Below are positions 22,160 to 22,401 of a stretch of DNA of 32,000 bases, piece after piece; position 1 is the first letter of the stretch, and every line of letters begins with the position of its first letter. The notes beneath the pieces are model-generated. The model saw nothing but the letters and a program-made list of their open reading frames with translations, searched no databases and was not told where the DNA came from. The position numbers and the translations under genes are program-made. The stretch is from Candidatus Omnitrophota bacterium (GTDB lineage: Bacteria > Omnitrophota > Gorgyraeia > 2-01-FULL-45-10): positions 360,001 through 392,000 of the forward strand of contig JAMWCX010000002.1 in NCBI GenBank assembly GCA_023818895.1, written 5' to 3'.

Positions 22160-22281
22160 TGGTGCCCGCACCAAGAATCGGCTACTCCGGTTCGCAGAGC
22201 TCACCTGCGTAGCCAGCCCGCTCGCTGTCGCCCAGAGGGCTTTTCCTCCCGTTGGTCGGCGCTCGCGGGCTTCGATTCTTG
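22160..22281 (-). ncRNA. tRNA-3'-end-capped structured element, Lys-type (unclassified)
   Basis: 122 nt in the tRNA-sense orientation. It ends in CGATTCTTGGTGCGGGCACCA, identical to the last 21 nt of tRNA-Lys (22326..22346). It shares a core and a fold with the Leu-linked copies; see findings. Confidence 0.55.
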
Positions 22282-22325
22282 CTGATGTTATCTTATAATC
22301 CGCTACCTGGCAATAAGCAATATGA

Positions 22326-22401
22326 TGGTGCCCGCACCAAGAATCGAACTTGGAACCTTGACATTAAGAGTGTCCTGCTCTGCCAATTGAGCTATGCGGG
22401 C
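22326..22401 (-). tRNA. tRNA-Lys (anticodon CTT), CCA encoded
   Basis: Hand-folded: GCCCGCA TA GCTC-AATTGGCA-GAGC A GGACA-CTCTTAA-TGTCA AGGTT CCAAG-TTCGATT-CTTGG TGCGGGC A CCA. Length 76 nt. There is one G.A mismatch at position 27:43. Confidence 0.85.

Follow-up and report, generated by a model that had tools for sequence, protein, structure and literature searches.

The stretch of DNA analysed here (the window) comprises 32,000 nucleotides (nt) from a Candidatus Omnitrophota bacterium (GenBank assembly GCA_023818895.1, contig JAMWCX010000002.1, positions 360,001 to 392,000), and its minus strand carries three copies of a short, structured element located directly behind tRNA genes, one behind tRNA-Lys(CUU) and two in tandem behind tRNA-Leu. 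Each copy ends in a duplicate of the last 21 nt of the tRNA that it follows. The tRNA-Lys(CTT) gene itself (22326..22401) is intact and encodes its CCA, according to sequence reading, ARAGORN and the Rfam tRNA model (66.5 bits). It is followed by a 44-nt spacer (22282..22325), which is part of the element and foreign to the native flank, and then by 122 nt (22160..22281) that hold the arm CAAGAATCG (22273..22281), complementary to tRNA-Lys positions 56-64, the conserved core (22181..22272) and the 21-nt block CGATTCTTGGTGCGGGCACCA (22160..22180), beyond which lies native flank. Read from 22180 to 22160, this block is identical to tRNA-Lys positions 56-76 at 22346-22326, and one extra T matches too. 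The same layout had been given in the initial annotation, and it was reproduced exactly in the sequence, by ARAGORN and Rfam, and by repeat finding on the window, which recovered both the Lys direct repeat and the inverted repeats formed by arm and block.

The core of the Lys copy was delimited using a covariance model built on 12 copies (R1; match at 22171-22282, 106.6 bits, E 1.8e-31), structure counts and single-sequence folding. From its 5' end, the core includes the junction AA (22272-22271), helix P2 (22270-22261 paired with 22225-22216, with one tandem G.A pair inside), the internal loop GCCGACCAACGGGAGGAAAA (22260-22241), the hairpin P2b (22240-22230), the opposing GACA (22229-22226) and P3 (22214-22180), in which an internal purine loop lies between the outer stem GGCTAC/GTAGCC and an inner hairpin. 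The arm provides the 5' strand of a further helix, P1, as supported by the inverted repeats and by P1 covariation. The first 9 nt of the block form the 3' strand of P1; the 12 nt that remain, comprising the acceptor 3' strand and ACCA, stay unpaired as a tail. Additionally, the spacer contains a conserved TATAAG box (22297-22292), located 10-12 nt 5' of the arm, and promoter-like hexamers, TTGCCA-17-TAACAT (22313-22285; a consensus match only), and the right half of the spacer is homologous to that of a tRNA-Ala copy in another locus (L011; fetched loci are cited by such numbers).

The tRNA-Leu(TAG) gene that hosts the sister copies (23785..23869, minus strand, identified with ARAGORN and Rfam) is followed on the same strand by a first unit (23645..23784) consisting of a 22-nt spacer, the arm GGAGTTG, the core and the block CAACTCCCTCCATCCGCACCA (23665-23645). 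The second unit (23505..23644) is an identical tandem copy with a period of 140 nt, after which the native flank begins. R1 matches both units with 114.8 bits (23656-23765 and 23516-23625). Both 140-nt units end in the last 21 nt of the Leu tRNA, with the block starting at C56, and for Lys as well as Leu the element has C before C56 where the tRNA has TT, as had been noted earlier. The bodies differ as also stated there, with a 66-nt stretch of the Lys core sharing 73% identity with both Leu copies, and R1 matches all three; copies within one genome are not close relatives. All three recur in the twin assembly L156. By chance, the core pattern GCCGACN5GGAGGAAAAG would be expected 0.02 times in the window, where there are three occurrences, and a 21-nt exact repeat inside 170 nt is likewise far beyond chance. 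No open reading frame (ORF) was found within the insert (120-180 nt). A small ORF behind the GGAGG box was rejected, as the triplet at its putative start in the P2b loop, although AUG, CUG or UUG in part of the copies, is CCG in many others, and a 97-aa ORF (23425-23718) was rejected as a gene, having no Pfam match and a frame that shifts between the 140-nt units.

The element is not restricted to this window. A scan with the core pattern of one genome per species gave 29 loci, of which six were chance coding matches and 23 were genuine, the latter mostly in metagenome-assembled genomes (MAGs) of Candidatus Omnitrophota or in MAGs labelled uncultured Planctomycetia. The same scan of metagenomes returned at least 120 loci, and in four sets of fetched DNA R1 found 31, 86, 17 and 8 matches. 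In total, the covariance model identified more than 130 copies, nearly all of them in Candidatus Omnitrophota genomes and metagenomes. An Rfam cmscan of 21800-24300, at both the gathering score and E up to 10, returned only four tRNAs and chance-level matches, and no self-cleaving ribozyme, RNase P, tmRNA, omega or guide RNA or other family of Rfam 15 matched at E up to 10. BLAST searches of phage and plasmid records gave no copy. A viral origin was rejected on this ground and because a scan of viral contigs gave chance coding matches only. In the literature, including a 2026 survey of complete Omnitrophota genomes, we found no description of the element. The earlier remark that the pattern is not familiar from any described tRNA-linked repeat, integron attC site, repetitive extragenic palindrome or bacterial interspersed mosaic element, or miniature inverted-repeat transposable element (MITE) is borne out as far as Rfam, phage and plasmid BLAST and the literature reach. 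The element is a real and general family outside any described family, and we class it as a new type of structured, non-autonomous element that targets tRNA genes.

The association with tRNA genes is pronounced. Among the 128 metagenome pattern matches listed, 72 follow a tRNA gene of the same strand at a distance below 600 nt and 19 are located at the ends of contigs; the remaining 37 have no such tRNA, and about 13 of these were judged to be chance coding matches. Copies lie downstream of the tRNA and are co-oriented with it. The partners are tRNAs for Ala, Arg, Asn, Gln, Glu, Gly, His, Leu, Lys, Met, Pro, selenocysteine, Ser, Thr, Trp, Tyr and Val, and more than 30 isoacceptors are occupied. 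With nearly every amino acid represented, the family is indeed not tied to a single att sequence. Further, the 21-nt identity is not confined to the Lys and Leu loci, as 48 further tRNA-adjacent copies could be analysed. In 38 of these 48, the identity block starts at tRNA position 56; its end has a mode at 76, followed by 77-78, with ten cases at 80-104 and an overall range of 74-104. The direct repeat measures 18-49 nt and typically 20-22 nt. The claim that every member carries the 3' end of its own tRNA holds for such copies, and it fails for some truncated ones, which lack the block; copies that break off after P2b or have an internal deletion occur as well. Orphan copies away from tRNAs also exist, in which P1 and the core are kept and the tail has decayed (CCA to CTA, deletions). 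Cores lacking the block or remote from tRNA genes had been named in advance as evidence against the pattern; the copies in question look like orphaned or decaying ones rather than a second lifestyle.

The two ends of the repeat behave differently. C56 doubles as the last base of P3, and where P3 closes with a C-G pair the block starts at 57 (G at 56), which indicates that the real junction probably lies between tRNA positions 56 and 57. At the other end, the repeat stops at 74 in the tRNA-Tyr site of L007, where the upstream copy is missing the CA of CCA, and at 75 in L032, where the tRNA gene does not encode CCA. These two ends argue for a ruler of about 20 nt measured from the T-loop instead of a copy of the mature tRNA end. 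That the block is copied from the mature tRNA was rejected for the same reason, as the CCA-less gene of L032 has a CCA-less block.

The element folds into a three-way junction. In 5' to 3' order, it consists of the arm strand of P1, an invariant GAA junction, P2 with P2b, one pyrimidine, P3 and the 3' strand of P1. P1 is formed by the arm and the first 7-9 nt of the tRNA-derived block and closes the junction. P2 is a 10-bp helix leading to an internal loop, with GCCGACC...GGGAGGAAAA on one side and GACA on the other, and bears the hairpin P2b. In P3, a purine-rich symmetric loop separates the outer stem from an inner hairpin, and the 3' strand of P1 comes next with no linker in between. At the end of the block, 12-14 nt corresponding to the acceptor 3' strand and CCA have no pairing partner. 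The alignment of 85 distinct sequences has 86.5% of its cells paired, and both sides have changed in 29 of its 34 pairs (605 cells); these counts lean towards the modelled structure, to which the alignment was fitted. None of 500 shuffles reached the observed values, and slid partners paired in 30-44%. With 12 copies aligned independently by MAFFT, pairing reaches 89.4% of cells, and double changes are present in 20 of the 34 pairs. For P1, double changes occur in seven of eight pairs and 92% of cells are paired. Compensatory changes thus support a conserved secondary structure on one strand, as expected of structured non-coding RNAs in general. G.A and A.G oppositions, often in tandem, number 245, as opposed to nine for C.T and T.C, which identifies the tRNA-sense strand as the folded one. 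These counts show that a single-stranded structure matters, and they do not distinguish RNA from single-stranded DNA.

About 23 unpaired nucleotides are invariant (GAA, GCCGAC, GGGAGGAAAAG and GACAG), and several resemblances to known RNAs were considered for the fold. The strands joining the helices (GAA, one pyrimidine, none) misfit the hammerhead core in any rotation, and Rfam gave no match, so that a hammerhead-like junction was rejected. In the Lys copy, GGAGGAAAAG, the invariant GGGAGGAAAAG (22241-22250) and CGACAG (22226-22230) resemble conserved region I and J2/4 of RNase P RNA. An RNase P-like core was rejected as well, given that the strand order around the helix differs and that no RNase P model scores; the resemblance is probably a coincidence. 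Finally, GCCCGCG of the Lys copy could pair with the tail as an acceptor-stem mimic, but the Leu and Ala copies have no such match, which makes it a by-product of the P2 sequence.

The arm and the block do not always agree, which is informative with regard to their origins. The earlier proposal that the arm co-varies with the tRNA stands for the family as a whole, given the P1 counts above, but not for every copy, as the arm mismatches the local block in five loci (L021, L128, L040, L111 and L125). In L021, both blocks are of the local type (CAAGCCC...), whereas the arm GGGACTCG fits a CGAGTCCC T-loop instead. The other four each have a single A.C arm mismatch at a T-loop-variable position. 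The mismatched arms suggest that each element brings its arm along and that its block is supplied by the target. In the simplest reading, the block would be made from the target, and the arm would be inherited and adjusted later. The mismatched arms contradict a copying of the arm from the target upon insertion, which was accordingly rejected.

Orthologous loci provide evidence for gain and loss. We reached them through homologues of the phosphotransferase system (PTS) EIIA gene just downstream of the copies, and the shared order is tRNA-Arg(tcg), tRNA-Leu(tag), one variable gene, tRNA-Lys(ctt), tRNA-Gly(gcc) and EIIA. The element is present at Leu (two copies) and Lys in the window and L156, at Arg and Gly in L162 and L163, and as a truncated copy at Gly in L161, while L164 and L167 have none and L157-L160 have an internally deleted remnant behind tRNA-Arg only. 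The same four tRNAs are kept and occupancy differs, which means that the element has been gained and lost. In L157, the remnant (2577-2632) reads GGGAGTCGAAGTAGC followed by the tRNA block with one substitution; in L157-L160, the arm is joined to the end of P3 via a repeated CGAAG, as is explained by a deletion between two CGAAG repeats of the full element. At the empty Lys site of L157, the flank begins with TATAA, as it does after the distal block in the window, and the spacer has no counterpart there. From this comparison, the insert consists of spacer, arm and core between two copies of the tRNA tail.

Closely related copies also occur behind different tRNAs. Cores that are about 95% identical are found in the Lys copy of the window and the Ala copy of another MAG, and likewise behind Val and Glu. 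In both pairs, the spacers are homologous from the first base after CCA, and the arms and blocks differ. These homologous spacers start with motifs such as TAACAA or TTTAGTCA and carry a TATAAGG box that precedes the arm by 10-12 nt. Identical tandem duplicates occur often, as expected from slippage between 21-nt repeats.

The spacers fall into three classes. The first, of 10-30 nt, has nothing recognisable, and co-transcription with the tRNA is likely here. The second, of about 40 nt, has the TATAAGG box and an upstream TTTAGT- or TTGA-like motif and may be a compact promoter; the Lys copy of the window belongs to it. The third, of 46-84 nt, has a strong intrinsic terminator directly after the tRNA and accounts for 23 of 73 spacers. 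In L009, TTGATA-17-TATAAT lies about 75 nt upstream (a consensus match only). In the helices of the element, G.U pairs are barely more frequent than A.C (44 versus 26), whereas the acceptor and T stems of tRNAs from the same loci have 55 versus three. Resident copies therefore seem to gather transitions without RNA-style filtering. Between lineages, however, the helices are kept by double changes, a pattern expected for a structure serving propagation and not host function. A folded DNA, in which G.T counts as a mismatch, would be expected to show the same pattern. The G.U to A.C ratio, the decayed, truncated and deleted copies and the tandem duplicates all point the same way, to an element that is selfish rather than host-selected.

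A mobilising protein was searched for in the window and in the fetched loci. Near the element in these loci, no gene for a recombinase, transposase, reverse transcriptase or nuclease occurs repeatedly, and the window has none. The fetched flanks of about 140 loci (up to ~8 kb per locus) contain no integrase, with no integrase family recurring within 3 kb, and these loci showed no related autonomous insertion sequence (IS) whose ends match those of the element. When neighbouring ORFs were clustered all against all in search of a linked protein, only housekeeping genes and a few Fic and BrnT-like genes emerged, and a linked protein was rejected.

Based on these data, we think it somewhat probable that the element is a small non-autonomous mobile element colonising the 3' side of tRNA genes in Omnitrophota, and that it inserts at the T-loop with a target duplication of about 20 nt. 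The mobile unit would consist of a spacer (promoter-like, with an intrinsic terminator, or a plain 10-30 nt), the arm of 7-9 nt and the core of ~95 nt. Insertion would be anchored in the T-loop between tRNA positions 56 and 57, and the next ~20 nt of the target, to about position 76, would be duplicated. This would leave the tRNA intact upstream and give the element a target-derived copy of the tRNA 3' end as its own end. On the tRNA-sense strand, the arm pairs with positions 57-64 of this copy into P1, closing the three-way junction with the highly conserved P2 and P3. Machinery encoded elsewhere would recognise this junction, either as transient single-stranded DNA or as RNA (transcribed together with the tRNA or from a promoter in the spacer). 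Since the T-loops of different tRNAs vary by only 1-3 bases, the element could land behind a new tRNA, after which a few substitutions would restore the register of the arm. The best-supported step is the target duplication anchored at 56/57 of the T-loop. We infer this duplication in preference to an att-type crossover, as well as the role of the arm and everything that concerns the enzyme.

Several points weigh against this interpretation. In the fetched loci, no transposase, recombinase, reverse transcriptase or nuclease that could drive the proposed mobility was linked to the element. A duplication of ~20 bp is unusual among known transposases. No staggered cutting was seen, and Campbell-type recombination within a 20-nt att identity can give the same layout. 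The 73% identity shared by the Lys and Leu cores gives no sign of a recent burst. The ~23 invariant unpaired bases suggest a function more demanding than that of a recognition handle, such as catalysis or specific binding, and the terminator standing between tRNA and element in 23 of 73 spacers clouds a reading as RNA. Finally, the 15 nt 3' of each Lys block (22145-22159 and 22311-22325) match at ten positions, with a rough chance probability of ~0.006. If this homology is real, the original duplication was about 36 nt long, and the block stayed identical as the flank diverged; block identity of 21/21 beside 10/15 in the flank may reflect a constraint on the tail that lies outside the proposed mechanism.

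The alternative that survives best, although we consider it unlikely, is a mini integrative cassette, in which a circle of block, spacer and core re-integrates within the 20-nt block as an att site through a recombinase encoded elsewhere, and the junction acts like a folded attC. The direct repeat from the T-loop to the tRNA 3' end fits this model, being the classical identity block of tRNA-integrating elements. As in islands and prophages that use a tyrosine integrase with T-loop sublocation, a T-loop-to-3' repeat flanks the insert, the tRNA is left intact and successive insertions form arrays. The units also resemble integron cassettes in being small, non-autonomous and arrayed, with a single-strand fold that is conserved over sequence, and few G.T pairs would suit a single-stranded DNA site. 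Several different cassettes can stand behind one tRNA, such as the two core lineages in L008, and some repeats reach past CCA (+15, +28), as if a cassette had re-entered its own locus. In some arrays, genes for Fic-domain and BrnT-like toxins are interposed between copies of the element and 3' fragments of tRNAs (L015 2500-4650 and L020 1660-3960, in locus coordinates), and in L015 a ~190-nt repeat of tRNA tail and trailer flanks the Fic gene in a manner reminiscent of cassette arrays. The insert of ~110-180 nt, in contrast, lacks the integrase gene that islands and prophages carry inside, and none was found in the flanks either. Unlike in islands and prophages, one family occupies more than 30 tRNAs, a pairing arm tracks the tRNA, and the two repeats match the local tRNA even at loci whose arm does not. 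An attC site is a bulged hairpin, whereas the element has a three-way junction with long invariant loops and no R and L boxes; its junction reads ...GRCC|RANTCC, with no GTTRRRY. Its arrays are anchored on tRNA genes and not on attI and intI, with a 20-nt direct repeat between units. A crossover within the block would leave a chimeric tRNA whenever the host tRNA changes, yet more than 30 isoacceptors are occupied and both blocks of L021 are local; target duplication fits better for this reason. We hold to target duplication over a crossover at a shared att with moderate confidence, and the att model is possible if new targets are reached rarely and under strong selection.

Less likely again is RNA-mediated spread resembling that of short interspersed nuclear elements (SINEs). 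Here the unit would be transcribed with the tRNA or from its spacer promoter, the junction would be bound by a reverse transcriptase made elsewhere, and the block would anneal to the bottom strand of a tRNA gene nicked at 56/57 and prime cDNA, with a second nick ~20 nt further on yielding the duplication. SINEs and tRNA-related retroelements are similarly small and multi-copy, with tRNA sequence at one end, variable duplications and machinery elsewhere. Such a route accounts for a target-derived block next to a donor-derived arm and for the repeat boundaries, fixed at 56 on the left and variable (74-104) on the right, as found for target-primed retroelements. The copies lie immediately 3' of the tRNA in its orientation and have promoter-like boxes in their spacers, and the left end of the unit abuts the tRNA CCA, as would follow if tRNA 3' processing set the 5' end of the RNA. 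On the other hand, no reverse transcriptase was seen in the window or loci, promoter-bearing spacers that are copied with the core need a transcription start further upstream, and strong terminators precede many copies. Truncated copies at the 5' end are typical of target-primed reverse transcription; none were seen, and the observed truncations are 3' or internal. The element further differs from SINEs in being bacterial, in containing only the last 20 nt of a tRNA, which are target-derived, in its strict specificity for tRNA genes and in having no known reverse transcriptase partner.

It is improbable, in our view, that the element is a self-programming, base-pair-guided unit, whose junction RNA would catalyse or guide its own joining to T-loop position 56/57 of any tRNA that the arm can pair with, using little or no dedicated protein. 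The IS200/IS605 family with palindrome-associated transposable elements (PATEs), and group II introns with their exon- and intron-binding sites, offer a likeness to the element, as an internal sequence pairs with the flanking target and a few base changes could in principle reset it. In the present element, however, 7-9 bp of pairing with the 3' flank close a junction, and there is a repeat of ~20 nt, whereas IS200/IS605 elements make none. The matching subterminal hairpins of a PATE are lacking (P2 and P3 are mutually unrelated), and a group II ribozyme would be far larger than the ~110 nt of the element. MITEs, which have terminal inverted repeats at both ends and a short fixed target duplication, differ also, since the sole inverted repeat here is that of the arm with the target-derived block, the arm lies 10-85 nt inside the unit and the repeat is 18-49 nt long. 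Considering all features of attC sites, MITEs, IS200/IS605 miniatures and integrase islands that could be tested, the tRNA-tail repeat is the only one that the element has.

The least probable reading is a functional RNA, of host or element, whose activity depends on a 3' end resembling that of a tRNA. It could be a ribozyme that cleaves itself or ligates at the P3/P1 junction, a scaffold with a 20-nt guide beside the universal T-loop GTTC, or an RNA acting on its cognate tRNA. The ~23 invariant unpaired nucleotides and tandem G.A motifs are typical of tertiary-structured RNAs, the putative junction falls exactly at a helix junction, a full promoter match lies upstream in L009 and the block is identical to the tRNA in most copies. 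Yet Rfam gave no match at E up to 10, and 8 nt at the start of the would-be guide are tied up by the arm. In the fetched loci, the neighbourhood contains no effector gene. G.U is barely favoured over A.C, unlike in tRNAs of the same loci, and presence and absence among close relatives show the element to be dispensable.

If insertion with target duplication at the T-loop is correct, tRNA genes across a bacterial phylum have been colonised by a previously undescribed small element that preserves its host gene by duplicating the tRNA tail, and that matches each tRNA by an arm changeable in a few bases. It would be a natural precedent for site-specific insertion that can be reset through base-pairing at the universally conserved T-loop, and would represent a new structured nucleic-acid motif with ~23 invariant loop bases to be accounted for biochemically. 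The family, with its more than 130 copies and its clear cases of filled and empty sites, is a good system for finding a new mobilising enzyme or ribozyme. The element also helps to account for variable tRNA trailers and for assembly breaks at tRNA loci in these genomes. With regard to the latter, several metagenome contigs break only 60-80 nt upstream of EIIA, at the tRNA/element region (L165 1-60, L166 1-80), which suggests that these repeats fragment assemblies.

Other repeats were observed at the same tRNA loci. Between tRNA-Lys and tRNA-Gly, where the element is absent, L162 (3291-3618) and L164 (60-215) have a different, hairpin-rich insert of ~330 nt (CAAATTTGGCC...). A second, unrelated repeat family, TTCTGCTTCGCCCTTC...GGGCTTCGCAG, with ends resembling inverted repeats, also starts directly after the tRNA CCA; it occurs in L167 (284-400 and 835-960) as well as in L015, L034, L008, L161, L019 and the spacer of L072. 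The tRNA trailers of these genomes thus host more than one family of small elements. In L167, the first 12-14 nt of tRNA-Lys (GCCCGCATAGCT) recur at two further places ahead of the gene, and a GC-rich segment resembling a hairpin follows each of them (478-490, 596-610 and from 684), in what looks like a mirror-image phenomenon on the 5' side of the tRNA.

Within the window, the region from the Lys element to tRNA-Gly (22064-22150) has a run of GTGTAAT heptamers facing an imperfect inverted copy (ATTACAC...), which together form a long AT-rich palindrome. The ORFs of the window are metabolic. Additionally, an ORF of 1941 aa (26148-31973), which ends 27 bases before the end of the window, has a GC content of 50-56%, compared with ~45-49% elsewhere in the window; very long proteins are a known trait of Omnitrophota.

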